Notes: generated by a model not told the origin, from the letters alone. DNA of 64,000 bases from an uncultured virus (IMG/VR IMGVR_UViG_3300027896_000015) (IMGVR_UViG_3300027896_000015), one strand, 5' to 3'; positions 42,700 to 61,702 are shown, numbered from the stretch's first letter. Program-made: numbers and translations.

Positions 42700-42909
42700 T
42701 TGACTTCGTAAAAAAAATATGCCATGATGAAGGTTATGAACGATGGATCGGAGAAGAAGAGAATCAGGAACATGAAAAGACTATTGTCAAGTAGCATATC
42801 GTCGCTGTCCCTCTTAACGGAGGGGTTTGCGGCGGTTTGTACTTGACCGCCGATGAAGGCAGAAGCCTTCGAGAAATCAAGCCCCTCTGGAAACGGAGGG
42901 GCTTTTTTT
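42700..42909 (+). promoter_or_regulatory. Promoter + Leu/Ser/Ile leader peptide + attenuator
   Basis: TTGACT-N17-CATGAT; leader 42772-42846 MKRLLSSSISSLSLLTEGFAAVCT (in-frame ATG also at 42736); terminator 42879-42909. Confidence 0.85.
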
Positions 42910-42932
42910 GTTCTCTGAAAACAGAATAGCGA

Positions 42933-43008
42933 GCGCCCATAGCTCAATCGGCAGAGCAGCGGACCCATAATCCGCCGGTTCCCCGTTCAACCCGGGGTGG
43001 GCGCACCA
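42933..43008 (+). tRNA. tRNA CAT (probably Ile2)
   Basis: Cloverleaf; loop CCCATAA; CCA end; leader contains ATA. Confidence 0.85.
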
Positions 43009-43012
43009 TAAG

Positions 43013-43101
43013 GGAGAGATGCTGTAATTGGTATCAGGCCTGCCCCGAACGCAGGTGGGGTCTCAAAGCCCTTGGGAGTTCGATCCTCCCTCTCTCCTCC
43101 A
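43013..43101 (+). tRNA. tRNA-Ser(CGA)
   Basis: Loop CCCGAAC; long variable arm. Confidence 0.85.
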
Positions 43102-43131
43102 GTATATTTCCATATAGTGATTTGAATAGAC

Positions 43132-43218
43132 GCGAACGTGTCGGAAATTGGTATACGACTCCGACTCAGGATCGGAGGCCCTATGGGCTTGAGGGTTCGA
43201 CCCCCTCCGTTCGCACCA
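43132..43218 (+). tRNA. tRNA-Leu(CAG)
   Basis: Loop CTCAGGA; long variable arm. Confidence 0.9.
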
Positions 43219-43220
43219 AT

Positions 43221-43305
43221 GCGTCCGTGGCGGAACTGGAATACGCGCTAGCCCGAGGCGTTAGCCCCGCAAGGGATGGAGGTTCGACTCCTCTCGGACG
43301 CACCA
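43221..43305 (+). tRNA. tRNA-Leu(GAG)
   Basis: Loop CCGAGGC. Confidence 0.88.
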
Positions 43306-43309
43306 TTAA

Positions 43310-43399
43310 GGAAGGTGAACTGACAAGGCGTCAGGGTGGCCTGCTAAGCCAATCGCCCGCTCATTTGCGGGTGCGGGTCGGGACCGCCACCTTCCGCCA
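43310..43399 (+). tRNA. tRNA-Ser(GCT)
   Basis: Loop CTGCTAA; atypical T-loop. Confidence 0.82.
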
Positions 43400-43406
43400 T
43401 TTTCAT

Positions 43407-43493
43407 GGAGGAATGCCGGAATTGGCAAACGGGCTGGTCCTGAAAACCAGAGCCCTTCGGGGCGTGCGAGATCGTGGCTCGCTTCCTCCGCCA
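43407..43493 (+). tRNA. tRNA-Ser(TGA)
   Basis: Loop CCTGAAA; atypical T-loop. Confidence 0.85.
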
Positions 43494-43500
43494 TTTTAAT

Positions 43501-43588
43501 GCCGGCGTGGCGAAACTTTGGCATACGCAGCCTCCTCAAAAGGGGTCACCGAAAGGCACTGAGGGTTCGACTCCCTCCGCCGGCACCA
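43501..43588 (+). tRNA. tRNA-Leu(CAA)
   Basis: Loop CTCAAAA. Confidence 0.88.
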
Positions 43589-43694
43589 CATATGGACGAA
43601 CAGGTTCATGTCAATTTTTAATGAAGGAGATACGTGTGCCATTTGAGTATAAGAATATCAGCTACTAGGCACAAAACATAAAATGAGGCGATAA

Positions 43695-44420
43695 ATGGGC
43701 AGAAGAAGGACATGGACGGATGAACAGCTCATAGTGGCCGCAAAAGCCGCCATATCGGGATCTTCGGTTCTGCGAATGGTTGGTTTGCAATTGACTGGAT
43801 CAAATCGCACAACAGTAAAAAACGCCATTTTGAGGCTTGGAATTGACACGTCTCATTGGCTTGGAAAAGCCCACATGAGAGGAAAGCATCACACGTGGAG
43901 TAAGAAACTAACCTTGCATGATATGTTGACTCGTGATGCCCCAGTCAGGCGAGCATCATTTAAAAAGTTATTACTCCAAGATGGGATATTACGAAATGAG
44001 TGTTCTGAGTGTGGTCAGGTGTCGTTGTGGAACAATAAACCGTTAGTTATGGTACTAGACCACATCAATGGCGTGCACAACGACTACAAAATAAAAAACC
44101 TTCGCATGCTTTGTCCCAACTGCAACAGCCAACAAGATACATTTTCTGGTAGAAACTTAAGGGGAATTCCAGCCAAACACCCAAGAAAGAAAACGCCGAT
44201 TTTTTGTTGCAAATGTGCAAAGTTATTAACCAGAAAAAACAAAACGCGCATGTGTTTCTCTTGTTTTCAAAGGATTAAAAAAGAGAGTGGCACCAAAGGG
44301 AAACATATTCCAAACGACTTGTTGCTAAATATCAAAAATTTAGGAGTGATGCAAACATCTAGGAAATATGGCGTAAGTCACACAACAGTTGCCAGATGGA
44401 TGAATGCCGTCTCGGCATAA
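43695..44420 (+). CDS. HNH homing endonuclease inserted in the tRNA cluster
   Basis: 'CSECG..LDHING..NLRMLCPNCNS'; markedly AT-rich. Confidence 0.85.
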   Translation: MGRRRTWTDEQLIVAAKAAISGSSVLRMVGLQLTGSNRTTVKNAILRLGIDTSHWLGKAHMRGKHHTWSKKLTLHDMLTRDAPVRRASFKKLLLQDGILRNECSECGQVSLWNNKPLVMVLDHINGVHNDYKIKNLRMLCPNCNSQQDTFSGRNLRGIPAKHPRKKTPIFCCKCAKLLTRKNKTRMCFSCFQRIKKESGTKGKHIPNDLLLNIKNLGVMQTSRKYGVSHTTVARWMNAVSA

Positions 44421-44490
44421 TGGGTTGGAGAGACCATATTGTAATCTGCAAAATAGACACTACAAGTTTCACTTATTTCCTGATACCAAT

Positions 44491-44583
44491 GGACCAATGG
44501 CGGAACTGGATAACGCGCTTGCCCGGAGAGCAAGTTGACCCCGAAAGGTGGTCATGAAGGTTCAAGTCCTTCTTGGTCCGCCA
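44491..44583 (+). tRNA. tRNA-Ser(GGA)
   Basis: Loop CCGGAGA. Confidence 0.88.
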
Positions 44584-44585
44584 CC

Positions 44586-44672
44586 GCGGACGTAGCCGAA
44601 CTGGTAGCAGGCTGCCTCCCTAAAAGGGGCTGGAGAAATCCCGTGCGGGTTCGAATCCCGCCGTCCGCACCA
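44586..44672 (+). tRNA. tRNA-Leu(TAA)
   Basis: Loop CCTAAAA. Confidence 0.88.
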
Positions 44673-44675
44673 TTT

Positions 44676-44760
44676 GCCCGCATGGCGGAATCGACAGACG
44701 CGCAAGTTCTAGGCACTTGTGCCGAAAGGCGTGGAGGTTTAAATCCTCCTGCGGGCACCA
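44676..44760 (+). tRNA. tRNA-Leu(TAG)
   Basis: Loop TCTAGGC. Confidence 0.88.
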
Positions 44761-44805
44761 CATCTGGCGCAAGGGCTCGGTCGCCTGTCCGCGGAAATAT
44801 AGTTC

Positions 44806-45432
44806 ATGCCCGAATTCTCCAACAGATGGTCCCGCAAGCTGTATCATACGCTTCGCCCCTTTAGGGAGGAGCTGGCCAGCCAGCCTCGCAAGTACCTTGA
44901 GATCGGCGTCTTCGAAGGCGGCTCGATACACATGATGATGACATCCTACCTGAAGCATCCCGAAAGCCGGGCGTGGGGCGTCGATCCGTGGGGCCTTCGG
45001 GAGATGAGCCGCAGGCGCTATCCGGCGAACGACGAAGGCCTGAAGAAAATCCAGGCGGTTGAACAGCGTGCCAGGAACAACTTGGCGGAGTTCGGCACCA
45101 AGGTCGAACTGATCAAGGCGTGTTCTCGGGACTACCTGCTCGGTAATCCGTTCCCGGAGGAGTTCTTCGACGTCATCTATGTCGACGGGGTGCATTACGG
45201 CTACGGAGCGCTGACAGACTCCGTCCTGACGTGGCCGCTGCTGAAGGTCGGAGGATTGTGCGTGTGGGACGACTACGAGGCCAGGCACGCTCCCGATCTG
45301 CCGAGGGTTGTGACCGCCTTTCTGTCGGCTCTTGGCCCCGGCAGTCACGAGATTTTAAAGGATGTCAGCCAGCTTTTGGTCCGCAAGCTGGCGCCGATCC
45401 AGCAGGCTCCTCCGCTGGACGAACCAAGTTAG
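44806..45432 (+). CDS. Class I SAM methyltransferase (Methyltransf_24-like)
   Basis: 'YLEIGVFEGGS', 'IYVDGVH', 'LKVGG...DDY'. Confidence 0.85.
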   Translation: MPEFSNRWSRKLYHTLRPFREELASQPRKYLEIGVFEGGSIHMMMTSYLKHPESRAWGVDPWGLREMSRRRYPANDEGLKKIQAVEQRARNNLAEFGTKVELIKACSRDYLLGNPFPEEFFDVIYVDGVHYGYGALTDSVLTWPLLKVGGLCVWDDYEARHAPDLPRVVTAFLSALGPGSHEILKDVSQLLVRKLAPIQQAPPLDEPS

Positions 45433-45470
45433 CCTGGCTTTGTCGGATCAAAAAGCGGTATAATGGTCGC

Positions 45471-45956
45471 ATGGAAAAGGTCAAGATCAACCTCGGATGC
45501 GGGCCTACGCTGTTTCCAGGCTGGCTGAATCTGGACGCCAACAGCAAGCGGTTTCCCGGATCGGTCCAGTGGTGCTGGAACGACCGCATACCGTGCGAAG
45601 ACGGAGCGGCCGACCTGGTCGTCGTCCAGCACGCCTTGATGTACTGTAAGGAACAGGACTACGACACCAACTTCAGGGAGATCAGGAGGGTTTTGGCGCT
45701 CGGATGCGTCCTGCTTCTCAAGGAGGACGACAACCGCCGGCGCTTTTGGCGCGAGATAGGCAGGAGGGACGGCGACGGGCGCGTACGGAGCTCGACCAAC
45801 CCGAGGCTCATTAAATCCGTCTTGGACAGGCACGGCTTCGGACGCCTTGTGTGGGACGCGCATGAGCTCGTGGCAAAGTATCCTACGATCGTCAACAGGG
45901 TTCCCAACCTGCTCAGGAGAATGTTCTTCATCGTGGAGTGCGTCAAAATGCGGTGA
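45471..45956 (+). CDS. SAM methyltransferase-like protein
   Basis: 'KINLGCG...GWLNLD', 'EIRRVL..G'. Confidence 0.75.
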   Translation: MEKVKINLGCGPTLFPGWLNLDANSKRFPGSVQWCWNDRIPCEDGAADLVVVQHALMYCKEQDYDTNFREIRRVLALGCVLLLKEDDNRRRFWREIGRRDGDGRVRSSTNPRLIKSVLDRHGFGRLVWDAHELVAKYPTIVNRVPNLLRRMFFIVECVKMR

Positions 45957-45972
45957 CGCCAAGGGAGAAGGC

Positions 45973-46905
45973 ATGGGCGACATCTACTATTTCGTTCCGA
46001 CTCGCGGCAACAAGATCGCCCTCACGTTCGACGACGGACCCAGCTCAGCCACAATCAACATCCTGGACAAGCTCAGGGCCTTCGGGTGCAAGGCGACGTT
46101 CTTCGCCCTAGGGCGCATGATCGGCATCGACCGCCGGGCGGACATCGTCAGAAGGATCGTCGACGAGGGGCACGAGATCGCCGTCCACGGCATGGTGCAC
46201 AAATCCGAGACGTGGGCTTCGTCCGCGGAGTCGTTCGCCAGCGTCTCGGATACCGTGAGGATCATCAGGGACTGCTGCGGGGTCAGCCCAAAATTCTTTC
46301 GTCCTCCGTTCGGGTGCCTGACGCCGCAAGCCTTGATGGCCGCCAGGAGAGAGAACCTTTCTTCGGTCGGCTGGTCCATCCACATCAAGGAATGGACCTG
46401 CGTCGGATCAATGAGCAGATCCGTGGGCTGGTTCTGGCAGCAGGCCAGGCCAGGATGCATGTTTCTCCTACATGATGACGACCGGAGCCACGTGGCCAAG
46501 CATGTCGACGCCCTTCTCGATATCCTGATTCCGGAGATGCGCCGAAGAGGGCTTGTGTTCTCGACCGTCGGAGATCTCATCGATGAGTGGGATGACGACG
46601 CGGCCTTCAGGATGGGAACCGGGCGCATTCTCGGCTTTAGGCACCAAGTTACCGCGCAACTCAGGCATCCAGGCAGACTGTCGATCGGCATGTCTGTCCT
46701 TCCCGACATACCCATGATCGGAACCGAGTTTTCGATCCGACTGGTAAGGCGCGGACGCGTGCTGGACGAGCGCAAGGTCGCCGCAGGAAGGCTGGATTCG
46801 ATGGCCACTTGGCCGGCGAAAACTAATTTTCCGGTTCCGCGCAGGTCGAGAAACCTGACGCTGTCCATATCGGACGGGCTAGACGCAATCGGTGTGAAGG
46901 TTTAA
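45973..46905 (+). CDS. Polysaccharide deacetylase (NodB/CE4)
   Basis: 'LTFDDGP', 'HEIAVHGMVH', 'FRPPFG', 'LLHD'. Confidence 0.9.
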   Translation: MGDIYYFVPTRGNKIALTFDDGPSSATINILDKLRAFGCKATFFALGRMIGIDRRADIVRRIVDEGHEIAVHGMVHKSETWASSAESFASVSDTVRIIRDCCGVSPKFFRPPFGCLTPQALMAARRENLSSVGWSIHIKEWTCVGSMSRSVGWFWQQARPGCMFLLHDDDRSHVAKHVDALLDILIPEMRRRGLVFSTVGDLIDEWDDDAAFRMGTGRILGFRHQVTAQLRHPGRLSIGMSVLPDIPMIGTEFSIRLVRRGRVLDERKVAAGRLDSMATWPAKTNFPVPRRSRNLTLSISDGLDAIGVKV

Positions 46906-46945
46906 TCGGCTTGATTTTCGCCCTTAGTTCTGATAGCATTCCTCC

Positions 46946-47797
46946 ATGGACGCGCCAAAAAAGATGTCGCTGGGCGACCGCATGAAGCTGTACGAGGACG
47001 CCGAATCCAGGCGCATGCTGATGCCTCTGCTGCCGATATGCGCCAGGCTGGACGGCAAATGCTTCCACAAATTCACCAAAGGCATGGATACGCCGTACTC
47101 CGTTGCGTTTCGTGAAATGATGCTGGACGTCACCACGCACTTGGTCGACGAATCGTGCGCCAGCATCGGCTACACCCAGTCCGACGAGATCAGCCTGGTG
47201 TGGGCCGGTTCGGATTTCAAAAGCCAGACGTTTTTCGACGGGCGAATATCGAAGATTGTGTCGGTTCTTGCCGCCATGGCTTCCGTAAAATTCTTCGATT
47301 TGGTAGTCGATCGCATGCCCGAAAAAAGAAGCATGCTGCCTGTTTTCGACTGCAGGGTTTGGAACGTTCCGACGGAGGCCGAGGCCGTCAACACCTTGCT
47401 GTGGCGCGAGCGCGACGCATCTAAAAACAGCATCACTTCTGCGGCCTTGTGCTTTTACAGCCACAAAGAGATCGAAGGCAAGAACGGTTCGGACAAGCAA
47501 GAAATGCTGTTCAAAAAAGGCGTCAACTGGAACGACTATCCAGCGTTCTTCAGGCGCGGAACATACGTACAGCGCAGAAAAGTCGAGCGGAAGTTTCTTC
47601 CGAACGAGATCGAACGCCTGCCGGAAAAGCACGAGGCCAGAAGAAATCCTGATCTGATGGTCGTCAGAACCGACATCGTCGTCCTCGGCATGCCGCCGAT
47701 CGCGTCGATATCGAACGCGGCCGATGTTGTTTTTAGAGGATGCGATCCGATTCCGATATCGTGTGGCCCAGAACCATCACGTCAAGATGACGATTGA
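46946..47797 (+). CDS. Thg1-like 3'-5' nucleotidyltransferase
   Basis: 'RLDGKCFHKFT', 'YTQSDEISL', 'FDCR', 'WRERDA..NSI'. Confidence 0.9.
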   Translation: MDAPKKMSLGDRMKLYEDAESRRMLMPLLPICARLDGKCFHKFTKGMDTPYSVAFREMMLDVTTHLVDESCASIGYTQSDEISLVWAGSDFKSQTFFDGRISKIVSVLAAMASVKFFDLVVDRMPEKRSMLPVFDCRVWNVPTEAEAVNTLLWRERDASKNSITSAALCFYSHKEIEGKNGSDKQEMLFKKGVNWNDYPAFFRRGTYVQRRKVERKFLPNEIERLPEKHEARRNPDLMVVRTDIVVLGMPPIASISNAADVVFRGCDPIPISCGPEPSRQDDD

Positions 47798-47855
47798 TTT
47801 TGGCGGTTAAAGGCTTAGCGCTCCGTCCTGAAGAAATATATTGTGGGGGATTATC

Positions 47856-48554
47856 ATGCCCACATGCAGAGACTGCAAATGGAGAAAGGATAAAGAATGT
47901 ACCGCCCCGCTTCGGGTGGCCTTGGGAAAAAACGGCAGGCAACCGACTCCGGTTCGGCACTGCATCGGAGCGATCATCGATTCCATGGTTGAGCAAGCTT
48001 CAGGCAAGCTGGTCGAGATCGGACCCGGGAACGCCCAGATGTTCAAGGCGCTGATCGATCGGAAAAGAAGGGACGGAACCGACGTCCAGTGGTACGGCGT
48101 CGACCCGAAATTTATCCATGCGCGCGACGGATTTTATCCTGGCAGCGCGGCCCACATTCCCTTCGACGACAACTACTTCGACATGGCCTGTTCCATCTGC
48201 TCGATAGAGCACTGGCAGGGGTACGGAGAAAGCGTTGCAGACGGGATCGCCGAAATCAGGCGCGTCCTTAAACCCGGCGGGATCATCTGGCTGGTCATAC
48301 CGATCCACTACCACGGCGAGGAGATATTCGTCCGCGGGTATATGCGCGGAATCAAGCGGCCGTTCAAAACTGGCTGGAAGGACGTCCGTTTCGAGCCTTG
48401 GCGCAAGGACTACGAGCCTCTGGAGCCGTTCCGTCCTTGGAAGACCGCCAGGGGACGCAGGCGATCTAGGGTCATCACAAGGATGGTCATGGAGTCTTCA
48501 AGGCAGAAGATCCCGTCAAGCTGGATGCTGGAGGTCACGGCCGCCAAGGATTAG
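47856..48554 (+). CDS. SAM methyltransferase with N-terminal Cys cluster (paralog 1)
   Basis: 'VEIGPG', 'SIEHW', 'RRVLKPGG'. Confidence 0.8.
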   Translation: MPTCRDCKWRKDKECTAPLRVALGKNGRQPTPVRHCIGAIIDSMVEQASGKLVEIGPGNAQMFKALIDRKRRDGTDVQWYGVDPKFIHARDGFYPGSAAHIPFDDNYFDMACSICSIEHWQGYGESVADGIAEIRRVLKPGGIIWLVIPIHYHGEEIFVRGYMRGIKRPFKTGWKDVRFEPWRKDYEPLEPFRPWKTARGRRRSRVITRMVMESSRQKIPSSWMLEVTAAKD

Positions 48555-48562
48555 GAGCATTG

Positions 48563-49249
48563 ATGCCGGCGTGCAAGGACTGCAAATGGATTCTGAAAGA
48601 CGGATGCGGAGCCCCAGCCATGGTCAAGAGGCGCCGTTCGTCGCCCGTCCGCCATTGCATCGGAGCCATCCTGGAGTCCATGATCTCGGAGGCGCGAGGC
48701 AACGTGCTTGAGGTCGGCCCTGGGAACGCGCACGCCCTCCGCAGAAACCTGGTCAGGAAGCGCGAACAGGGCACCGACGTCCTCTGGTTCGGGATCGAGC
48801 CGAGATGGGGCGACGAACGCAAGAACCTGTTCAAAGGCAGTGTCGGACGCATGCCGTTCGTCGACGGATTTTTCGACATGGTCTGTTCCATCTGCTCGAT
48901 GGAGCATTGGCACGAGAAGAGGGACAGCGTCGAGAAAGGCATAGCCGAATGCCGCAGGGTGCTCAAGCCTGGAGGGACTTTCTGGTCGTGCGTTCCGATC
49001 CACTATCATGGCGACTGGATTTTCATCAGGGGCGAGATGCGGACGATCAAGAGAATGTTCAGGCAAGGCTGGGGCAGCGTGCATTTCGATGCATGGAGGA
49101 AGGACTACGAGCCTCTGGAACCGTTCCGTCCCTGGAAGACCGCTTTAGGAACCGACAGGCCAGCCAGGATCGAAAAGGCGGTCATGGAGTCGTCGCGTCA
49201 GAAGGTTCCCTCCAGCTGGCTCCTTGAAATAAAGGCCGTAAAGGAGTAA
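48563..49249 (+). CDS. SAM methyltransferase with N-terminal Cys cluster (paralog 2)
   Basis: Same motifs; shares 'WRKDYEPLEPFRPWKTA' with paralog 1. Confidence 0.8.
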   Translation: MPACKDCKWILKDGCGAPAMVKRRRSSPVRHCIGAILESMISEARGNVLEVGPGNAHALRRNLVRKREQGTDVLWFGIEPRWGDERKNLFKGSVGRMPFVDGFFDMVCSICSMEHWHEKRDSVEKGIAECRRVLKPGGTFWSCVPIHYHGDWIFIRGEMRTIKRMFRQGWGSVHFDAWRKDYEPLEPFRPWKTALGTDRPARIEKAVMESSRQKVPSSWLLEIKAVKE

Positions 49250-49255
49250 TCCGTC

Positions 49256-49816
49256 ATGATCAGGCAGATTGGCAAGCAGTCGCACGACGAGGTCTTCTAT
49301 GACGTTGACGGGGTCAAAGTCAGGCTTTGGCTGATCGTCGGAGGCACTCCGGCTCTTGGAATCGAAGATCCAAAAGAGGGTGCCGGAATTGTTAAGAGGT
49401 TCGGGACGGATCCGAAGCTGTCAAGCCGTCCTGGCGTCCTGACATATGAAGTCCTGCCGAACGGAGAGAAGGATATCGTCTCTTTCGTCGACGAGGTCAT
49501 GCCGATGGTCGAGCGCAGGAAGTCCAGGGATAATGTGTTCAAGCATTTCAAGGTCATGAAGGCTCCGATATTCGAGGACGCTGACGGCAGCAGGTGCATC
49601 CTGCGCGTCAAGTACGACTTTCCATGGGCTCCTCGCGTCAGGATCGACGGCGACTGCGACGTGTACAAGTCCAGCCTTCCTGACGCATGGAAGGAGCTGG
49701 CCGCAGTTCTGGAGGTCGAATCGGGAGAGGACATCGGCTCCCTCAGCAACGCCGAGTACTGGGAGATGGTCAAGGCCCTGAACGCCTGCGCCGCCACGGC
49801 GACGATCTCCGAGTAG
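49256..49816 (+). CDS. Hypothetical protein
   Basis: AAGGAG RBS. Confidence 0.55.
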   Translation: MIRQIGKQSHDEVFYDVDGVKVRLWLIVGGTPALGIEDPKEGAGIVKRFGTDPKLSSRPGVLTYEVLPNGEKDIVSFVDEVMPMVERRKSRDNVFKHFKVMKAPIFEDADGSRCILRVKYDFPWAPRVRIDGDCDVYKSSLPDAWKELAAVLEVESGEDIGSLSNAEYWEMVKALNACAATATISE

Positions 49817-49845
49817 GATGCCGGCTTTTGTTGTATAATGCCGCC

Positions 49846-52408: not shown

Positions 52409-52420
52409 AGAGGATCGGAC

Positions 52421-54067: not shown

Positions 54068-54463
54068 ATGAAAGGATACAAGCATAACAAAAACGTCACC
54101 TATTCGTCGAAGTACCATGTCGTGTGGTGCTGCAAGTATCGCAGGAAAGTCCTCACTCCCGAGGTACAGTCCAGGCTGAAGAACATTGCGCTGGATGTCT
54201 GCCAGGAAAGGGGCGCCGAAGCGATATCCTTGGAGATCACGCCTGACTGCGTCCATCTTCTGGTCGAAATCGATCCTCAATACGGGATTCACAAGCTGAT
54301 CAAACAGATCAAAGGACGCTCCTCCAGACTGCTCAGGCAGGAATTCAAGCATCTGACCACCCGGCTGCCGTCCTTGTGGACTAATTCATACTTCGTTTCA
54401 GCCGTCGGATGTGTTGCAACATCGGCTATTAGGAAATACGTCGAGGAACAGAAACACATATGA
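54068..54463 (+). CDS. tnpA: Y1 transposase TnpA
   Basis: 'YHVVWCCKYRRKVL', 'IKGRSS', 'LWTNSYF', 'KYVEEQ'; HUH motif reads CVH. Confidence 0.92.
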   Translation: MKGYKHNKNVTYSSKYHVVWCCKYRRKVLTPEVQSRLKNIALDVCQERGAEAISLEITPDCVHLLVEIDPQYGIHKLIKQIKGRSSRLLRQEFKHLTTRLPSLWTNSYFVSAVGCVATSAIRKYVEEQKHI

Positions 54464-55518
54464 TCATCCGAACTCTAAAACTCAGGCTGACGTCCAAGCA
54501 GGAACGGGAGCTGGAGCAGTGGCTGTTCCATCTGACTGGAGTATGGAACTGGGCGGTCAAGAAAATCGGACACGACGCCAAGGACAAAATTTACCATTCT
54601 CCGAATGATTTTCAGAACTTGCTGGCGGAACACGGACAGAAGATGGACATGCCGTCCCATGTGCTGCAGGGAATGCTGGTTCAAGCCTACAACTCGTGGC
54701 AGAGATGCTTCAGTAAGCTGGCTAGGAAGCCCCATTTAAAAGGCATTCGCAACAAGCTTCGTTCTATCCCCTTTCCCGATCCGATCAGGCCTCCGAAGGA
54801 TGGCAGAATCGGCGTTCCTGGAATCGGAAAGGTTCGGTTCCACAAGCAGGAGCTTCCGGAAGCCAATATAAAATGCGGACGGATCGTCCACAAAACTTCT
54901 GGATGGTATTTACACCTTTGGTTGGACACAGAACATAAGTTTCCCGTCAAGCAGACGAACAAGGCCGTCGGCATCGATCCAGGCTTCAAGACTCTTCTTA
55001 CCTTGTCCGACGGCGTCAAGATCGAGAATCCCAGGGAACTTCAGAAAGGAGCCAGAAGGCTCGCGCAGGCGCAGAGAGGCGGCAAGAAGCTGGCCGCAAG
55101 GATTCACGAAAGGCAGGCGAACAGGCGAAACGACCGCAACCACAAGATCAGCCGAAAACTGGTTGAGGACTACGCCACGATCTGCTACTCGAACGACAAT
55201 TTCAAGGGAATGGCAAGGCTCCACGGAAAGTCGGTTTCCGAGGCCGCCTTGGGAAACCTGATCGGAATGCTGGCCTACAAGTGCCGTACAGGCGGTAGGA
55301 ATCTCGTTCCTGTCAGATCAGCTTACACCACCATGACCTGCTCGGCTTGCGGGTCCTTGACTGGACCTACAGGGCTTAGCGGGCTTGCGGTAAGGCGCTG
55401 GAGATGTTCCGCCTGTGGGGCGGACCATGACAGGGATATCAACTCTGCCCTGGTAGTCCTCAGCACCGGGCTCGGAACGAGCCGCGAGGGAACCAAGACC
55501 GCCCACGTGACGGCCTAG
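54460..55518 (+). CDS. tnpB: TnpB-family RNA-guided protein
   Basis: 'VGIDPG', Zn finger CSAC..CSAC, 'DRDINSA'. Confidence 0.9.
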   Translation: MIIRTLKLRLTSKQERELEQWLFHLTGVWNWAVKKIGHDAKDKIYHSPNDFQNLLAEHGQKMDMPSHVLQGMLVQAYNSWQRCFSKLARKPHLKGIRNKLRSIPFPDPIRPPKDGRIGVPGIGKVRFHKQELPEANIKCGRIVHKTSGWYLHLWLDTEHKFPVKQTNKAVGIDPGFKTLLTLSDGVKIENPRELQKGARRLAQAQRGGKKLAARIHERQANRRNDRNHKISRKLVEDYATICYSNDNFKGMARLHGKSVSEAALGNLIGMLAYKCRTGGRNLVPVRSAYTTMTCSACGSLTGPTGLSGLAVRRWRCSACGADHDRDINSALVVLSTGLGTSREGTKTAHVTA

Positions 55519-55653
55519 TTCGTCCGGAATCCCCGGCTTTAGCCGTGGGGAGGTTCAATACTGCGAGATGACCAGGAAGAGGATCGCAATGTGCCTGGAC
55601 GGGTCTTTGAGGACCAGGCCGATCGGCAGGCCGACGCTCCAGCCTCCGCGGCC

Positions 55654-56028
55654 CTAGAGCGTCCCGGACTGCAGCGAGAACAGCGTCTCGTCCAGGAACG
55701 ACGAGTTCATCATCCTGTCCTGAATCGAGCCTCCGTCGTTCGTGCTCGCCAGCCATGCCGTGATGACGGCCATGGCGACCTTCTTGGCGGCCGGCTCCGG
55801 CAGCATGCCGCGGGAGTTGGCCGCGATCATCTGCGCCAGCCTTTCCAGGACGCCGTCCAGTTCTGACGACGCCATTGTGATCATGGACGGGATGACGTCG
55901 TTCTTGATGAATTCCGTGCGCGCGGTGATGTCCTGGGCGGCAGCCAGTTCGCTGGCTTGCCCGATCCCTACGGACATCCCGCCTGCGTAGCCCTCGTATT
56001 CGACGGCTGTTTTAATCCATGTGCGCAC
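55654..56028 (-). CDS. Hypothetical protein beginning (M)RTWIKTA
   Basis: GTG start just after an AAGG-N19-GAA promoter. Confidence 0.5.
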   Translation of the reverse strand: MRTWIKTAVEYEGYAGGMSVGIGQASELAAAQDITARTEFIKNDVIPSMITMASSELDGVLERLAQMIAANSRGMLPEPAAKKVAMAVITAWLASTNDGGSIQDRMMNSSFLDETLFSLQSGTL

Positions 56029-56083
56029 GAACCATATTTCGTGGTATAATGGTCGCGAACCTTGAAGAACTAAGGAGCGCACC

Positions 56084-56908
56084 ATGGCAGAAGAACTGAT
56101 CAGCGAACCGTTCGCGGCTAAGCCCGCCGTTCAGCCGAAGCGAAACGACGTCCTGTCCCAGAAGATGGACGAGTTCCAGAAGCAGCAGGAGTCCGCCGCG
56201 GAGCTCTCGAAGCTTTCTCCCGAGCAGATCGAGGAGATGGTGTCCCGCGTGGACGTCCAGAAGGCCGCCGACGAGATACTGACGTGGCTGGTGGCAAACG
56301 TCGAGCAGTACGTCGAGAACAAGGAGACGTCCTACCTCCTGTTCATATCCGTTCCTCCCGAGATGAAGGACGCCATGCCGAACGCGTTCCTGATTCAGGA
56401 CGCCTTCATGCGCGTTCCTGAAGAGACCGGCCATCCGCTTCCGGAGTCACAGGACGCGCTTACCCAGTTCCTGTCGGACGAAGTTCCGCAGGAGGTCATA
56501 GACCGCCTGTACGACATGCTGTCCAAGAAGGTGGACGAGATTAAGGCCGCCATCATGGGGCACAAGGAGGGGCTGCAGGCCCTGTTCAAGCGTCTTGTGT
56601 TCTTCTACGAGATGACGGGGTTCTCCCCGGCGACGGGTCCCGTCATACAGGAGATGGCCGGGGAGGTCAAGGTCAACGACTTCTATTTCGACCCCATAGC
56701 CATGTCGGTCCAGGTCGCCCAGGGAGTGGGGAGAGCCGACGAGGCCGTCGTCGTTGAGGAGGACGACGAGAAGACGGTCAGCGAGTCGAAGATCGTCGAG
56801 ACGGGGGAAAAGAGGGTCGTCAGGGAGACGTTCGTCCCCGCAGGATTCGGGATCGACATGGAGATATCGTTCTGGCAGGGAAGCAGCCCCAGCGTGTCGA
56901 TGTACTAG
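56084..56908 (+). CDS. Acidic hypothetical protein
   Basis: TGGTATAAT promoter; AAGGAG RBS. Confidence 0.7.
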   Translation: MAEELISEPFAAKPAVQPKRNDVLSQKMDEFQKQQESAAELSKLSPEQIEEMVSRVDVQKAADEILTWLVANVEQYVENKETSYLLFISVPPEMKDAMPNAFLIQDAFMRVPEETGHPLPESQDALTQFLSDEVPQEVIDRLYDMLSKKVDEIKAAIMGHKEGLQALFKRLVFFYEMTGFSPATGPVIQEMAGEVKVNDFYFDPIAMSVQVAQGVGRADEAVVVEEDDEKTVSESKIVETGEKRVVRETFVPAGFGIDMEISFWQGSSPSVSMY

Positions 56909-57153
56909 GCGCCGACGATCTCCTTCAGCCTTTTGATCTCGCCTTCCCAGAGGTCGAGCTTCGACTTGAAGCATCCTTGGCACTGTCCGGACGACTTCGC
57001 CTCGTCCAGCTTCTTCTGAAGGTCGGCGATCTTGATCCTGGCGTCGTCGATGCGCCGCTGGCGGCGCGCGGATCCTCTTTCCAGGGCGCGTCGGCGGATG
57101 GCTTCGTTCTCCAGTTCGCGCTCCTGTTCACTTGTTCTGGGATGCCTGCGCAT
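56905..57153 (-). CDS. Small coiled-coil protein with CxxC
   Basis: Run of three small minus-strand ORFs. Confidence 0.5.
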   Translation of the reverse strand: MRRHPRTSEQERELENEAIRRRALERGSARRQRRIDDARIKIADLQKKLDEAKSSGQCQGCFKSKLDLWEGEIKRLKEIVGA

Positions 57154-57376
57154 CTTGTTTCGCCTTCTCCCTCATTTCCCGCAGGCGTCGCCTTGCGGCC
57201 TTGCATCCGCTGCAGCCGTGTTTCGACTCCGGAGGAGGAACAGGCCTGCCTGCCAGAGACATTGTGTTCGATGCCAGATGGCGCCTGAGCCTTCTGATCA
57301 TCCTTCTGAAGCGGCGCCTCTGAAGCGACCGTTCTTTCTCGGCCTGCATTGCGAGGATTCTTTGGTGTCGCGTCAT
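57128..57376 (-). CDS. Small basic protein with CxxC
   Basis: Run of three small minus-strand ORFs. Confidence 0.45.
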   Translation of the reverse strand: MTRHQRILAMQAEKERSLQRRRFRRMIRRLRRHLASNTMSLAGRPVPPPESKHGCSGCKAARRRLREMREKAKQDAQASQNK

Positions 57377-57396
57377 GGCTGTCTTCGTGCCCTGGT

Positions 57397-57624
57397 TCAG
57401 CGTTCTTGTCCGACGATCTGGTTCGCCATCCTGCCCCAGGCGGCCGCCTGTCGGCGGACGGACCGATCGATTTGACGCCCAAGTTCTCCGCTGGAGATTT
57501 CCTTGGCCACTCTCTGAAAAACAGTGATCGTCTCTCCAGTGGGCTTCAAGTTTTCAGGATCTTTGAGCAGATCGGGTCGGCTGCGCAGTTCGTCGATGAA
57601 TGTCATGGTTTTCACGCCTTTCAC
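57397..57624 (-). CDS. Small hypothetical protein
   Basis: TTGACA-type promoter upstream on the minus strand. Confidence 0.5.
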   Translation of the reverse strand: MKGVKTMTFIDELRSRPDLLKDPENLKPTGETITVFQRVAKEISSGELGRQIDRSVRRQAAAWGRMANQIVGQER

Positions 57625-57670
57625 AATATCTTACTGCGGGATGGCTGTCAACTCCTGTTTGAAAATAACG

Positions 57671-57856
57671 TTGACTTTGAAGGAACGATATGGCATCATT
57701 CAAGAAAGAGATATGGAAATGAACGCTATCTTGACATCTGGCAACATGTGGCGCGACCGAATGCCCATCGGGCATGCGGATCGCTAGCGGTCTGCAAGGA
57801 TGGCGAGAAGCGAAGGCGTGCCCGGAAATCCGAATGGATTACGGGCTTTTGTTTTT
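57671..57856 (+). promoter_or_regulatory. Promoter + Met/Trp leader peptide + attenuator
   Basis: TTGACT-N17-CATCAT; leader 57713-57787 MEMNAILTSGNMWRDRMPIGHADR; terminator 57820-57856. Confidence 0.75.
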
Positions 57857-57897: not shown

Positions 57898-58062
57898 ATG
57901 AACAGGGATAGTTTCGCTAAGTTCAGTCAACCGATTGTTCGCTGCATAAGATGTCGTAAACGCAAGGTCAGTAAAGATGGGCTCGTATGGTGTAAAGCGT
58001 GCAGAGAGAAAATGAAGGCGGTGGCCGAACGAGTTAATCGTATGCAGTTGGATGTAGATTGA
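57898..58062 (+). CDS. 54-aa Zn-finger protein (not in the ORF track)
   Basis: GGAGG RBS; 'CIRC...WCKAC'. Confidence 0.6.
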   Translation: MNRDSFAKFSQPIVRCIRCRKRKVSKDGLVWCKACREKMKAVAERVNRMQLDVD

Positions 58063-58068: not shown

Positions 58069-58144
58069 AGGAGTGTGGTTTAACTGGCAAAATCCGTGCC
58101 TCCAAAGCACGTGGATGAGCGTTCGAATCGCTCCACTCCTGCCA
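58069..58144 (+). tRNA. tRNA-Trp(CCA)
   Basis: Loop CTCCAAA; CCA end. Confidence 0.9.
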
Positions 58145-58148
58145 ATTT

Positions 58149-58233
58149 CCCGGCGTGCGAGTAATGGTATCTCAGGAGCTTCATAAGCTCCCGCCGTAAG
58201 GCCTTGGATGTTCAAGTCATCTCGCCGGGACCA
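58149..58233 (+). tRNA. tRNA-Met(CAT) with long variable arm
   Basis: Loop TTCATAA; CCA end. Confidence 0.8.
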
Positions 58234-58312
58234 TTTTGTTGTATAATGTCGCTGTCCAGGAGAGGGCTCTTCGGCTAAACCGAAGAGGAGACATCTGGAC
58301 AAGGAGGGGTAA

Positions 58313-58639: not shown

Positions 58640-58685
58640 TTGTCCGCGGGCGGCGCGGGTCTGTTGCCGCGCCGCCACTTTTCTG

Positions 58686-58880
58686 TTGACTAATGCAGGA
58701 TTTTGTGGCATGATTCAGGTACAAGTAATGCAAGACAAGGATATCAGTCATGATTGCATCTGACAGGCGGAGAGATCGTGATGCCGAGCCCGACGGGGCT
58801 TCCGGCCGATCGTGATCCGCAGAGATGCGTTCGGCAGAAGGGAAGACCCAGCGGGCGAAAGCTTGCTGGGTTTTTTGTTT
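58686..58880 (+). promoter_or_regulatory. Promoter + Arg/Asp leader peptide + attenuator
   Basis: TTGACT-N17-CATGAT; leader 58750-58815 MIASDRRRDRDAEPDGASGRS; terminator 58845-58880. Confidence 0.85.
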
Positions 58881-58887
58881 TCAAGAT

Positions 58888-58962
58888 GCGCCTGTAGCTC
58901 AAAGGAAGAGTGCCTCGCTTCGAACGAGGAAGTTGGGAGTTTAAGTCTCTCCAGGCGCGCCA
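58888..58962 (+). tRNA. tRNA-Arg(TCG)
   Basis: Loop CTTCGAA. Confidence 0.88.
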
Positions 58963-58971
58963 AAATATATG

Positions 58972-59046
58972 GTCCCTGTGGCGTAACGGACAGCGCAAAT
59001 CTCTCCTAAAGATTAGGTCCTGGTTCAATTCCAGGCAGGGACACCA
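58972..59046 (+). tRNA. tRNA-Arg(CCT)
   Basis: Loop CTCCTAA. Confidence 0.9.
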
Positions 59047-59049
59047 AAT

Positions 59050-59126
59050 GCGTGCGTCGCCTAGCAGCAATGGCACTGGCTTGTCGAGCCAGCATACCGC
59101 AGGTGCGAGTCCTGTCGCACGCGCCA
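59050..59126 (+). tRNA. tRNA-Asp(GTC)
   Basis: Loop TTGTCGA. Confidence 0.85.
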
Positions 59127-59137
59127 ACTTGATTGCT

Positions 59138-59214
59138 GTCGCCGTGGCCTAACGGACGGGCGCCGCCCTGCGAAGGCGGATATCGTGCAGGTTCGACTCC
59201 TGTCGGCGACGCCA
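59138..59214 (+). tRNA. tRNA-Arg(GCG)
   Basis: Loop CTGCGAA. Confidence 0.85.
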
Positions 59215-59219
59215 GCTTT

Positions 59220-59302
59220 GCGGGTGTAGCGGAGCGGTTTTCTAAACCGTGCATTGTACCGTAATTGGACGCATGGGGGTTCAACTCCCTCCTCCCGCAC
59301 CA
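59220..59302 (+). tRNA. Atypical tRNA-Arg(TCT), D-arm missing
   Basis: Acceptor stem, loop TTTCTAA, long extra arm, T-arm, ACCA. Confidence 0.65.
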
Positions 59303-59317
59303 TGTAAAACAGGAGGA

Positions 59318-59629
59318 ATGACGATGCTGAAGAAAACGTTCGATGCTGGGATCAGATTCTTCGGTCCCAAAAACAAGAAGCTCAAGATCGTCCTGGCGGA
59401 TCAGGACATGGTGAGCTTCTCCGACAAGCAGGCGGCCGAAATTCTTAAAGTTCTCGGTCACGAAGAGGCGCTGATCACGGACGAGAGCTGCGTTTCGGAC
59501 TTCTCGCCGGACAAGAAGACTCTGGCGAGGCTGTCGAAGCTGCTGGGGTTCGACGTCAAGCCGATCGACAGGATTGCCGTTTTGGCGCGAATTTTAATGG
59601 TGCAGCCGAGAAGCTTCAGGGCAAAATAG
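59318..59629 (+). CDS. Hypothetical protein
   Basis: AGGAGG RBS. Confidence 0.6.
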   Translation: MTMLKKTFDAGIRFFGPKNKKLKIVLADQDMVSFSDKQAAEILKVLGHEEALITDESCVSDFSPDKKTLARLSKLLGFDVKPIDRIAVLARILMVQPRSFRAK

Positions 59630-59641
59630 CGTTCAGGATGT

Positions 59642-60085
59642 TCATTTTATCAGTAGACGCAGCAGCGCCTGTTCCAGCTTCTTGACCGCTACGGGATCAT
59701 CTGGTGTATCAGGAATATCCCTCGCGGCTGGAACCCCAGGTCTGACGGCCAATGGGCCTTTTAGTCCCTCGGCTTTGGCAAAACGATCCATCCATTCCCG
59801 TGTGCCTGCAATTTCGCCAGCAGCATCCACAATGCGCCCATTTGGCAACAGAAGCCCAAAATGTTCAGTTTGTTCATTTTGGCCAATTAAACTAACGATC
59901 CTCACCAGATCTCCACCATATATCCGCTGCAGGGCCTTCGCCGCGATCAGGCAACCGCCGTCGAAAGGCCCGCTGCCGGCGATGGAGTCCATCAGGATGC
60001 CCGCCACTTCGTTGGTCCTGAAGGCGTCGGCGACGTTCATTCCAGATTTCGCATTCTTGTCGGCGGATATTTTGACGATCCTCAT
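59642..60085 (-). CDS. Hypothetical protein beginning MRIVKISA
   Basis: AAGG-N19-GAA promoter; 'GGC..A.AL...H......IVDAAG' hints at a Cys-His-Asp triad. Confidence 0.6.
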   Translation of the reverse strand: MRIVKISADKNAKSGMNVADAFRTNEVAGILMDSIAGSGPFDGGCLIAAKALQRIYGGDLVRIVSLIGQNEQTEHFGLLLPNGRIVDAAGEIAGTREWMDRFAKAEGLKGPLAVRPGVPAARDIPDTPDDPVAVKKLEQALLRLLIK

Positions 60086-60212
60086 GGGCAATCTCTCATG
60101 CTTCTATTTCGTCGGATGCTTGTCGGCGACCTTCTATGCAGGACATCCGGAGTCGGTTCAGGAACAATAAACACACTGATTGCTGGAAGGAAAATCAACC
60201 TGAGGATGAGCC

Positions 60213-61010
60213 ATGAAAAAGCTGAAGATCGTTATGTCCAGAAAGGAATGGGAGAACGCAGGGCTGAAGGCCGGATGGATCAAGGCGTCCGCAGCAGTCG
60301 CCCCGACGGTGGCCCCATCGTCATCCGTGCCCGCGGGCGTTCCGAAGCGCGACAAGGGCACCGTTCCTGAAATCCCGTACGAGAAGGGCGCGCTCAAGGA
60401 GCAGATCAAGTACCTGCTGGACGCCGGGATGTCGGAGGAGGAGATTCTCAACCGGATGCTGCGCGGCACGATCGGGACCGAAAGCGCCGCGGCCGCCAAA
60501 AAGTGCATGGGCGTCATTCGAGAGGCGCTTGACGAACTGAAGGAAGAACACCCCAAGTTTTCTCCCAATGTCCTTCAGGAGATAGCCTCCCAGAACGCCA
60601 AGATGAAGACGGCGGCGGTCGGGCACAGTATCATCGACAGGGTCATCGACAAGTCGCCGATAGCCGGAAAAATCCTGGACAGCCTAGGGGAAGCCGCTTT
60701 GGCGGGCGCCATCAAGATCGTCGAGCAGATGATGGCCGGCAAGCGGCCAGTCGAGTCCGTCGCCCCGACTGCGGCGGACATGGCGAAGGTCGAAGCTCTC
60801 GCCAACCAGGTTCGGTCCGCGTCGTCCCAGGATGGCCTCACAAAGGTCGCCTTTGACGTCGACCAGGTCAGGCTGGCGGTCATCGTCATCCTGCTTGCCT
60901 TGGGCGTTTATACAGGCGGCAAGGCCGTCACAAAGGCCCTGGACATTGGCAAGGAGCGGGCAGCGGCGATCGAACAGGCGTCCGACATGATGCAGAATCC
61001 AGGAGCGTGA
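60213..61010 (+). CDS. Hypothetical protein sharing a domain with 13947..15977; C-terminal hydrophobic helix
   Basis: 'QIKYLLDAGMSEEEILNRML..AKK.M'. Confidence 0.65.
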   Translation: MKKLKIVMSRKEWENAGLKAGWIKASAAVAPTVAPSSSVPAGVPKRDKGTVPEIPYEKGALKEQIKYLLDAGMSEEEILNRMLRGTIGTESAAAAKKCMGVIREALDELKEEHPKFSPNVLQEIASQNAKMKTAAVGHSIIDRVIDKSPIAGKILDSLGEAALAGAIKIVEQMMAGKRPVESVAPTAADMAKVEALANQVRSASSQDGLTKVAFDVDQVRLAVIVILLALGVYTGGKAVTKALDIGKERAAAIEQASDMMQNPGA

Positions 61011-61093
61011 CGGTCGTCAAAAGCCCTTGACTTTAGTCCGCCAATGTGCTATTCTGGCGTCAGAAACAGTGAAGAAAGGATCGGTTCTCAAGC

Positions 61094-61276
61094 ATGATCA
61101 GGAAGGCATACCGGAAGCTGGGCAAAATCGGATGGGGGCAGTTTCTGTTCGTGGCCGCCGCCGCGCTGATCGTCGGGGTCATCATCGGCCTGTCTTGGAA
61201 GCTGATCCAGATTCATACTTGCGGCGTCGAGGTCAGGGAGAACGGGATTACGTCCGTCGTTCATGCCGCGAAGTGA
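61094..61276 (+). CDS. Small membrane protein
   Basis: Single hydrophobic helix. Confidence 0.5.
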   Translation: MIRKAYRKLGKIGWGQFLFVAAAALIVGVIIGLSWKLIQIHTCGVEVRENGITSVVHAAK

Positions 61277-61282
61277 TTTTTG

Positions 61283-61446
61283 AAGGTTTTGTCGCCTCGA
61301 TTAAGGAATAAGGGCGGTAGGAGAGAACAATGAGATTGCAGCGCAACAATAGCCAAAATGCACCGAGGCCTGACGGCCTTCGGGCGGGCTGATTGTTGCC
61401 CCGTTCGGACACCCTCAGGTCGGAAGGCCTGGGGGTTTTTGAGTTT
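61283..61446 (+). promoter_or_regulatory. Promoter + Asn/Gln leader peptide + attenuator
   Basis: AAGG-N19-GAATA; AGGAG RBS; leader 61330-61392 MRLQRNNSQNAPRPDGLRAG; terminator 61411-61440. Confidence 0.82.
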
Positions 61447-61451
61447 AAAAT

Positions 61452-61539
61452 ACCGGAGTGGAGGAGAACTGATATTCCCCCAGGTTGTTACCCTGGAGCC
61501 GCAAGGTCATTGCTGGTTTAATCCCAGCCTCCGGTGCCA
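61452..61539 (+). tRNA. tRNA-Asn(GTT) with long variable arm
   Basis: Loop TTGTTAC. Confidence 0.8.
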
Positions 61540-61550
61540 TTTTGTTAATT

Positions 61551-61624
61551 TGGTCCTTGGTGTATCGGCTGCACGCGAGTCCCTGAAATTCTAGGACTGG
61601 GTCCGACTCCCGGAGGACCAACCA
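61551..61624 (+). tRNA. tRNA-Gln(CTG)
   Basis: Loop CCCTGAA; weak anticodon stem. Confidence 0.75.
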
Positions 61625-61627
61625 TCT

Positions 61628-61702
61628 AGGCCCATGGGGTATAGGTTGCCCATCTGCCTTTGAAGCAGAAAGAGGTGGTCCGATTCCATCTGGGCCTGCC
61701 CA
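61628..61702 (+). tRNA. tRNA-Gln(TTG)
   Basis: Loop CTTTGAA; 3' end GCCCA. Confidence 0.8.

Follow-up and report, generated by a model that had tools for sequence, protein, structure and literature searches.

How can the transcription of a gene be coupled to the supply of a charged transfer RNA (tRNA)? The classical answer is attenuation through a leader peptide, as carried out by trpL, hisL, leuL and pheL in front of amino-acid biosynthetic operons and, in a multivalent manner, by thrL and ilvL. The pheST attenuator of Escherichia coli, with its leader pheM, controls phenylalanyl-tRNA synthetase by the same principle, and T-box elements bind tRNA directly, for which they need a conserved Stem I and a T-box sequence. 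Here, we describe a 64,000-nucleotide (nt) stretch of DNA from an uncultured virus (IMG/VR IMGVR_UViG_3300027896_000015), hereafter the window, which belongs to the genome of a large phage sampled in a freshwater metagenome. In the window, 20 tRNA genes are arranged in four units, each of which is headed by a short open reading frame (ORF) and an intrinsic terminator. We consider it likely that the heads of these units are four independent ribosome-mediated, or leader-peptide, transcription attenuators with tRNA operons as their regulated output. The phage probably makes the tRNAs of the four units mainly when the matched codons in the corresponding leader are read slowly.

The likeness to the attenuators of amino-acid operons lies in a promoter-proximal short ORF rich in regulatory codons, in predicted protector and antiterminator helices beside that of the terminator, in an intrinsic terminator placed before the regulated genes, and in a supply of charged tRNA that would be read via the position of the ribosome. 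Unlike them, the elements of the window are phage-borne, their output would be tRNAs and not enzymes, and none of them matches a leader in Rfam. The regulatory codons of a window leader stand for two or three amino acids, and leader 1 has each synonymous codon about once, whereas classical leaders repeat one. pheST is similar in that a leader peptide attenuates a component of translation acting on the sensed tRNA, but there the output is a synthetase and one amino acid is read, while here the tRNAs themselves would be made, giving a direct feedback of the product. With T-boxes the window leaders would share the codon-specific sensing of tRNA status tied to a choice between terminator and antiterminator; however, the leaders have no T-box match in Rfam and their signal lies in a translatable frame. 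The proposed output in the form of tRNAs, the multivalent and codon-diverse sensing that would go with it, and the location on a phage set these elements apart from all known attenuators. According to the initial annotation of this DNA, no described leader-peptide attenuator with tRNA genes as its output was known to it, and a full-text literature search likewise gave no description of tRNA genes gated by a leader peptide, though papers outside the searched library may contain one.

tRNAs of phages have mostly been considered from another side. Phage T4 repairs tRNA-Lys cut by PrrC, and phage T5 has variants of the anticodon loop. That phage tRNAs counter defences targeting tRNAs is described in one paper (PMC11555353). 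The window phage is similar in being a large phage with its own tRNAs beside genes of the tRNA-repair type, and with unusual anticodon loops as described below, but those studies treat the function of the tRNAs and not the control of their synthesis. A term search of PMC11555353 returned no 'leader' or 'attenuat', and returned 'terminator' in a cloning method only.

Four leaders and the codons of their tRNA clusters

Eighteen tRNAs in the window are called by ARAGORN. A nineteenth, tRNA-Ser-GCU at 43310-43399, is obtained with ARAGORN at a relaxed threshold, and a twentieth, tRNA-like gene at 59220-59299 is found by the Rfam tRNA model with 32.4 bits. In the alignment the latter has the anticodon loop UUUCUAA, that is, UCU for Arg. 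Its D arm comprises just 4 nt and its variable region carries an insert of 21 nt, and we refer to it as the degenerate tRNA. The initial annotation had placed 20 tRNAs in four clusters, each behind a promoter, a leader ORF of 20-24 codons and an intrinsic terminator. The number and the clustering stand, and the clusters form four leader-headed units. The leader ORFs are there as well, with 24, 24, 21 and 20 codons, and so are the terminators, four hairpins with T runs of -15 to -23 kcal/mol. Thus, three features of an attenuator are present, namely a short leader ORF, regulatory codons, and an intrinsic terminator before the regulated genes. As for the promoters, a common motif, TTGACT-N15-TGnCATsAT, is matched at exactly three positions of the 64 kb, 42700, 57671 and 58686, each directly upstream of one of leaders 1-3; leader 4, in contrast, has as its only promoter-like site one located about 275 nt upstream, and this distance makes its assignment weak. 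tRNAs of units 1, 3 and 4 start about 8-28 nt past the terminator hairpin and its T run, so close that no room is left for a promoter of their own. The stop codons of the leaders sit 18-32 nt upstream of the terminator stems. The four leader regions are no more similar to each other than shuffled sequences are, in agreement with the earlier statement that they are unrelated in sequence.

What relates each leader to its unit is the choice of codons, for which matches were scored with standard wobble rules. Codons read by tRNAs of the own cluster amount to 12 of 23, 4 of 23, 9 of 20 and 5 of 19 in leaders 1 to 4, respectively, and all 20 tRNAs find a readable codon in their own leader, provided that the tRNA with the anticodon CAU at 42933 reads ATA and the degenerate tRNA at 59220 reads AGA. 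The claim that every tRNA has a cognate codon in its leader is therefore upheld with two assumed assignments, and the claim that each leader holds the codons of its own cluster is upheld with a specificity looser than had been proposed.

The match is most elaborate in leader 1, where 12 consecutive matched codons occupy 42781-42816 (CTA TTG TCA AGT AGC ATA TCG TCG CTG TCC CTC TTA) and a Watson-Crick codon is supplied for 10 of the 10 tRNAs of unit 1. This unit, made of the CAU tRNA, four Ser and five Leu tRNAs, is split by an HNH endonuclease gene, yet the three tRNAs on the far side of this insertion have their codons in leader 1 as well. The five Leu codons of leader 1 are exactly the five Watson-Crick cognates. 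Given the amino acids, such a choice has a probability of P=4.4e-4, because CTA and TTA each make up 2% of the Leu codons of the phage; the corresponding values for Ser, Ile-ATA, Arg and Gln are far less striking (0.20-0.37). In the codon usage of the phage, AGA, AGG and ATA are heavily used. Matched codons of leader 2 are Met at 57719, 57746 and 57761 and Trp at 57749. The matched run of leader 3 occupies 58762-58782 (D R R R D R D) and five of the five tRNAs are served; that of leader 4 occupies 61339-61359 (Q R N N S Q N), and three of three tRNAs are served by Watson-Crick codons.

Several kinds of comparison were made with these counts. The window contains 592 small ATG ORFs, if the leaders themselves and nested starts are counted; when these are ranked by their match to a cluster, the leader of that cluster comes first or second in all four cases. 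Peptides generated at random from the codon usage of the phage reach the observed count together with full coverage in 5, 1840, 16 and 1127 of 200,000 cases for leaders 1-4. The signal is bound to the reading frame: in four of four leaders the frame of the ORF is the best of the six, with 12, 4, 9 and 5 matches in leaders 1-4, where none of the other five frames exceeds 6, 2, 5 and 2, respectively. When the 20 tRNAs are reassigned at random to clusters of 10, 2, 5 and 3, at least 30 matched codons are obtained once in 200,000 trials, and coverage of 20/20 is never obtained in 200,000, the maximum being 18.

The leaders also say something on the identity of tRNAs. The window has two CAU tRNAs, and the presence of ATA in leader 1 and of ATG three times in leader 2 suggests that they differ in identity. 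The acceptor stem of the one at 42933-43008 contains the pairs C4-G69 and C5-G68, which are determinants for lysidine synthetase in E. coli.

Alternative pairings and the predicted switch

When the leaders are folded without constraints, the minimum free energy (MFE) structure of every one consists of a long hairpin, formed by the region of the matched codons and the sequence behind it, and then the terminator. In addition, the 5′ arm of each terminator finds a complementary segment within the leader of the same unit. The best duplexes between this arm and the leader have -22.0, -19.7, -25.9 and -14.4 kcal/mol in leaders 1-4, and are reached by 1, 15, 2 and 45 of 500 dinucleotide shuffles. An alternative antiterminator pairing had been proposed for each cluster; the complementarity behind it exceeds shuffles in leaders 1-3 and is marginal in leader 4. 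The parts, their order, the codon match with its statistics and the alternative pairings are what the sequence analysis shows.

Does the choice between these pairings depend on where a ribosome is? In snapshot folds, the ribosome was represented by 29 unpaired nt around the A site, and the RNA was taken at the moment before the 3′ arm of the terminator exists. In such snapshots of leader 3, it takes a ribosome with its A site on D R R R D (58762-58774) to sequester 10 of the 13 arm nt, and in those of leader 4, 9 of the 11 arm nt are sequestered solely when the A site stands on L Q R N N S Q (61336-61354). The size of the switch in leaders 3 and 4 is reached by 6 and 0 of 150 shuffles, respectively, and the model thus predicts a clear ribosome-position-dependent switch in these two leaders. 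In leader 2, the antiterminator is predicted with the A site on codons 2-16 (57716-57758), and it is lost from 57761 on and without a ribosome. If instead the full-length RNA is folded to its MFE under the same kind of constraint, the terminator is lost in leader 1 with the A site at 42778-42790, and partly lost in leader 2.

From this anatomy we infer translated leaders, ribosomes that stall on them, a direction for the switch and a feedback. RNA polymerase would initiate at a promoter of the sigma-70 type, and ribosomes would translate the short ORF of the leader. If the matched codons are decoded fast, the ribosome would clear them, the protector helix would re-pair and the terminator would form, so that RNA polymerase would halt before the first gene. 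If any of the matched codons is decoded slowly, the ribosome would stall on the matched run and hold the 5′ half of the protector open; the freed segment would then pair with the 5′ arm of the terminator, and the polymerase would read into the tRNA genes. New charged tRNAs would relieve the stall, and this would amount to a negative feedback on decoding capacity. As leader 1 has each synonymous Leu or Ser codon about once, it would sense isoacceptors and not amino acids alone.

Weighing attenuation against other explanations

A number of observations weigh against attenuation. Good Shine-Dalgarno sequences are confined to leaders 3 and 4, those of leaders 1 and 2 being poor, and leader 4 is without the common promoter motif. 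On the side of the codons, two of the 20 codon-tRNA assignments are based on assumptions (CAU as a reader of ATA and the identity of the degenerate tRNA), the signal of leader 2 is the weakest, its 4 matches out of 23 being reached by random peptides in about 1% of cases, and leaders 2 and 4 each also hold five Arg/Asp codons, some of them within the modelled sensing window. On the side of the pairings, the arm boundaries in the shuffle test were set after the duplexes were known. In the snapshot MFE folds of leader 1 the antiterminator appears with the ribosome on the matched codons, but also with no ribosome at all or with one that has arrived at the stop codon; its conditionality rests on an assumed kinetic trap. 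The size of the switch modelled for leaders 1 and 2 is reached by 30 and 27 of 150 shuffles, and in the full-length constrained MFE leaders 3 and 4 retain their terminators at all ribosome positions. Attenuation is a kinetic choice, as established for trp, and because of this the full-length equilibrium folds are not decisive, but they leave the switch a modelled one. As a whole, the attenuator interpretation of the initial annotation has the support of anatomy, codon statistics and folding snapshots, with the full-length folds, in which the terminators of leaders 3 and 4 are kept, on the other side. Folding with and without the footprint of a ribosome, which it had put forward as a check, gave a position-dependent capture of the arm in leaders 3 and 4, but in leaders 1 and 2 a switch that shuffles often match.

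Close relatives of the window phage were found neither among GenBank phages nor among viral contigs nor in a metagenome scan. Matches of GenBank phages to the window are confined to stretches of the size of a single tRNA. Among proteins of viral contigs, the best relative of the Thg1-like enzyme has 54% identity (L001/G001) and that of RtcB 45% (L032). No relative was found with the protein of 41933-42691 as a query, only a match of 22 residues with that of 60213-61010, and only distant or promiscuous matches with the ClpB-like protein and the protein of 37778-38437. In the metagenome scan, one locus (L038) is the same DNA, identical to the window at 37832-57794 over 19,963 bases; at the loci with Thg1 relatives of 48-61% identity, at most one further gene of the window is matched in any of them, and weakly.

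A survey of distant phages covered 55 Thg1-linked metagenome loci, L038 included, with 32 clusters and 65 tRNAs, and 70 RtcB-linked viral loci with 73 clusters and 194 tRNAs, 10 with a terminator at most 60 nt from the first tRNA. Upstream ORFs of 34 distinct multi-tRNA clusters were scored against their own and against swapped tRNA sets, and matched ORFs were not enriched: 7 of 34 against 20.5% with swapped sets at p<=0.05, and 1 of 34 against 2.3% at p<=0.001. Either the design is not general among these phages, or such a crude score is blind to it. The tRNA region of phage T5 has no unit of matched leader and terminator either, and both results add to the points against attenuation. The scan of other phages, also proposed at the outset, thus gave no enrichment, but it did give two individual analogues, which are convincing by eye and by simulation, each being one case chosen from 73 clusters. 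In L169, the ORF MIINQQNQPEEGMTF at 2110-2157 is followed by a terminator 6 nt before tRNAs for Glu, Glu, Gln, Pro, Asp and Asn (unit 2110-2213); its run of eight matched codons is reached in 8 of 100,000 trials, and there is a protector hairpin, like those of the window leaders, between the matched codons and the sequence 3′ of them. In L182, an ORF at 2428-2547 has 17 matched codons out of 38 and serves six of six anticodons, which is reached in 2 of 100,000 trials, and a terminator lies 51 nt before tRNAs for Ser, Gln, Ser, Pro, His and Arg (unit 2428-2610). Both are like the window units in having a short ORF in the amino acids of the downstream tRNAs and then a terminator, but they have no sequence similarity to the window leaders, other tRNA sets and AT-rich genomes, and the phages, uncultured too, are unrelated.

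Other candidates were set aside. The leader of L085 is only weakly matched. No matched leaders were found in G001, which has 33 tRNAs: a Trp-rich ORF before its tRNA-Trp is without a terminator, and a terminator before its Thr cluster belongs to the end of a lysine-rich gene. A Cys-rich ORF before tRNA-Cys of T5 resembles a small zinc-ribbon protein and is a warning on false positives.

What else could the four units be? It is possible, though we are rather doubtful of it, that the same attenuators serve in counter-defence as a sensor array resolved to the level of isoacceptors, a role that goes back to the initial annotation. The host would remove certain tRNAs, by anticodon nucleases or similar means, ribosomes would stall on the matching leader, and only that operon would be switched on to supply replacements; C33 loops of the phage tRNAs may resist cleavage, and RtcB, the Thg1-like enzyme and tmRNA would repair or rescue the remainder. 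The resolution of codons in leader 1 at the isoacceptor level and the presence of tRNA-repair-type genes (Thg1-like, RtcB) and tmRNA in the phage are in line with such a role. So is C33, which is found in place of the near-universal U33 in 8 of the 18 ARAGORN tRNAs, namely CAU, Ser-CGA, Leu-GAG, Ser-UGA, Ser-GGA, Leu-UAA, Leu-UAG and Gln-CUG, seven of them in unit 1, against 18 of 230 distinct tRNAs of other phage loci; this position adjoins the cut site of some anticodon nucleases. Phage tRNAs are known to defeat tRNA-cleaving defences (PMC11555353). However, an attenuator answers any slow decoding alike, whether it comes from a mismatch of codon usage, from decay of host tRNAs in infection or from amino-acid starvation, and no set of nuclease targets is known to us that fits the groups Leu/Ser, Arg/Asp, Asn/Gln and Trp/Met. 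If the sensor array were real, the text of the leaders would be a key to tRNA identity, by which the CAU tRNA at 42933 should read ATA and the tRNA without a D arm at 59220 should read AGA.

The remaining explanations do without such a switch, or replace its mechanism. Terminators may be leaky or insulating, or the short transcripts may be small RNAs or micro-protein genes, with tRNAs made constitutively by read-through and a codon match due to chance or some other purpose. The moderate significance of leaders 2 and 4 taken individually, the persistence of the terminators of leaders 3 and 4 in the full-length MFE folds, the survey without general enrichment, and a unit at 62413-62576 composed of promoter, ORF and strong terminator with no tRNAs behind it would all agree with this. 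We nevertheless regard the absence of a switch as improbable, because the joint match of four unrelated leaders to four tRNA sets is found in 0 of 200,000 reassignments, the signal is specific to the reading frame, the choice of synonymous codons in leader 1 is very unlikely by chance, and the complementarity to the terminator arm beats shuffles in three of four leaders. Somewhat less probable still is that translation of the leader acts via another route, such as Rho-dependent polarity, RNase cleavage at stalled ribosomes or the stability of the transcript. Such routes would suit the weak conditional antiterminators modelled for leaders 1 and 2, as well as the untranslated RNA left between the stop codons and the terminator stems (18-32 nt), but a canonical hairpin with a T run stands immediately before the tRNAs in every unit, and the segment complementary to its 5′ arm, also present in every unit, would be superfluous. 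A T-box-like riboswitch, whose leader RNA would bind tRNAs directly by codon-anticodon pairing and without translation, would account for the codons shown being Watson-Crick partners of the downstream anticodons. It is the least probable of all, hardly to be expected: Rfam gives neither a leader family (Trp, His, Leu or Thr leaders) nor T-box RF00230 at E<=1 in the leader regions, the matched triplets stand in a single frame bounded by start and stop codons and preceded, in leaders 3 and 4, by a Shine-Dalgarno sequence, and no T-box with 5 to 12 adjacent specifiers is known to us.

The units and their genomic setting

The coordinates of the features are collected in Table 1. Genes of the window are nearly all on the + strand, and they include those for helicases, many methyltransferases, a RecJ-like nuclease and HNH endonucleases.

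Table 1. Features of the four tRNA units and selected neighbouring genes in the window
Feature	Coordinates	Strand	Remarks
Promoter 1	42700-42728	+	TTGACT, 17 nt, CATGAT, upstream TG
Leader ORF 1	42772-42846	+	MKRLLSSSISSLSLLTEGFAAVCT; 24 codons, ATG; in-frame alternative start 42736
Protector helix 1	42785-42815 with 42818-42848	+	duplex -35.8 kcal/mol
Antiterminator 1	42817-42830 with 42877-42890	+	pairs with terminator 5′ arm (42877-42890); -22.0 kcal/mol
Intrinsic terminator 1	42878-42905 (to 42911 with T run)	+	11-bp stem, GAAA loop; -21.3 kcal/mol
Unit 1a tRNAs	42933-43588	+	CAU, Ser-CGA, Leu-CAG, Leu-GAG, Ser-GCU, Ser-UGA, Leu-CAA
HNH endonuclease gene	43695-44420	+	within tRNA operon 1; phrog_10822, E=1.9e-39
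Unit 1b tRNAs	44491-44760	+	Ser-GGA, Leu-UAA, Leu-UAG; codons TCC, TTA, CTA present in leader 1
Promoter 2	57671-57699	+	TTGACT, 17 nt, CATCAT, TG; divergent from minus-strand promoter-like site 57651-57623
Leader ORF 2	57713-57787	+	MEMNAILTSGNMWRDRMPIGHADR; 24 codons, ATG
Antiterminator 2	57768-57778 with 57815-57825	+	-19.7 kcal/mol
Intrinsic terminator 2	57818-57847 (to 57858 with T run)	+	two-part stem; -15.3 kcal/mol
Zinc-ribbon-like ORF	57898-58062	+	54 amino acids; between terminator 2 and unit 2 tRNAs; Pfam matches sub-threshold only
Unit 2 tRNAs	58069-58233	+	Trp-CCA, CAU
Promoter 3	58686-58714	+	TTGACT, 17 nt, CATGAT, TG; directly after terminator 58648-58677 of upstream gene
Leader ORF 3	58750-58815	+	MIASDRRRDRDAEPDGASGRS; 21 codons, ATG; AAGGA Shine-Dalgarno 8 nt upstream
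Antiterminator 3	58787-58803 with 58841-58857	+	-24.2 kcal/mol
Intrinsic terminator 3	58843-58874 (to 58880 with T run)	+	-22.8 kcal/mol
Unit 3 tRNAs	58888-59299	+	Arg-UCG, Arg-CCU, Asp-GUC, Arg-GCG, degenerate tRNA (UCU, 59220-59299)
Candidate promoter 4	61027-61055	+	TTGACT, 17 nt, TATTCT, TG; no match to common motif
Leader ORF 4	61330-61392	+	MRLQRNNSQNAPRPDGLRAG; 20 codons, ATG; AGGAG Shine-Dalgarno
Antiterminator candidate 4	61366-61377 with 61411-61422	+	-14.4 kcal/mol
Intrinsic terminator 4	61409-61438 (to 61441 with T run)	+	-20.7 kcal/mol
Unit 4 tRNAs	61452-61702	+	Asn-GUU, Gln-CUG, Gln-UUG
ClpB-like ATPase and DnaJ-like protein	27962-31359		proteostasis genes of the phage
tmRNA	36416-36873		Rfam
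Thg1-like enzyme	46946-47797		
RtcB ligase	63078-63998		runs to the end of the window

Some of the tRNA genes have peculiarities of their own. The second CAU tRNA, at 58149-58233, has 85 nt and is called by ARAGORN without an Rfam match, and tRNA-Asn at 61452-61539 is 88 nt long. The HNH gene among the tRNAs of unit 1 has its counterpart in phage T5, which likewise has HNH genes among its tRNAs. Over leader 1, a match to the PyrR-binding site in Rfam was rejected as a generic resemblance of hairpins, for it is sub-threshold (28.2 bits with a gathering score of 54, E=0.31). Directly 3′ of tRNA cluster 3 there are protein ORFs at 59319-61010, with no recognisable promoter or terminator between. 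Control by attenuator 3 may for this reason extend to these downstream protein genes.

A second conserved promoter-like motif, TTGTTGTATAATG, occurs at 11652, 49828, 58236 and 61714, with variants at 54050 and 62413. It precedes protein genes, stands also directly 3′ of tRNA clusters 2 and 4, and differs from the motif of the leader promoters. At 62413-62576, the promoter-like sequence TTGTTGTACAAT is followed by a unit of about 150 nt closed by a strong terminator at 62541-62570, into which a Cys-rich ORF of 47 codons runs; a TTGACT promoter-like site comes directly after. This unit may encode a small RNA or a micro-protein, or it may be a further attenuator. The tmRNA, the Thg1-like enzyme, RtcB, the ClpB-like ATPase and the DnaJ-like protein together make up a translation and proteostasis kit of the phage. 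A pair of IS200/IS605-type TnpA and TnpB lies within the phage genome at 54050-55518.

Attenuation by leader peptides has been a matter of operons for amino acids and of a synthetase, and in the window its logic appears to govern the tRNA genes themselves. The sensor would read the very codons that its product decodes, and a more direct form of feedback could hardly be imagined. Such an arrangement would explain how phages rich in tRNA genes avoid producing dozens of tRNAs that are not needed, and it would let us predict from sequence which codons a phage expects to be limiting. Synthetic biology, in turn, would gain ready-made sensors that are compact and respond to specific codons. Because the design is replicated four times within one genome, the window is a good locus on which to test it.

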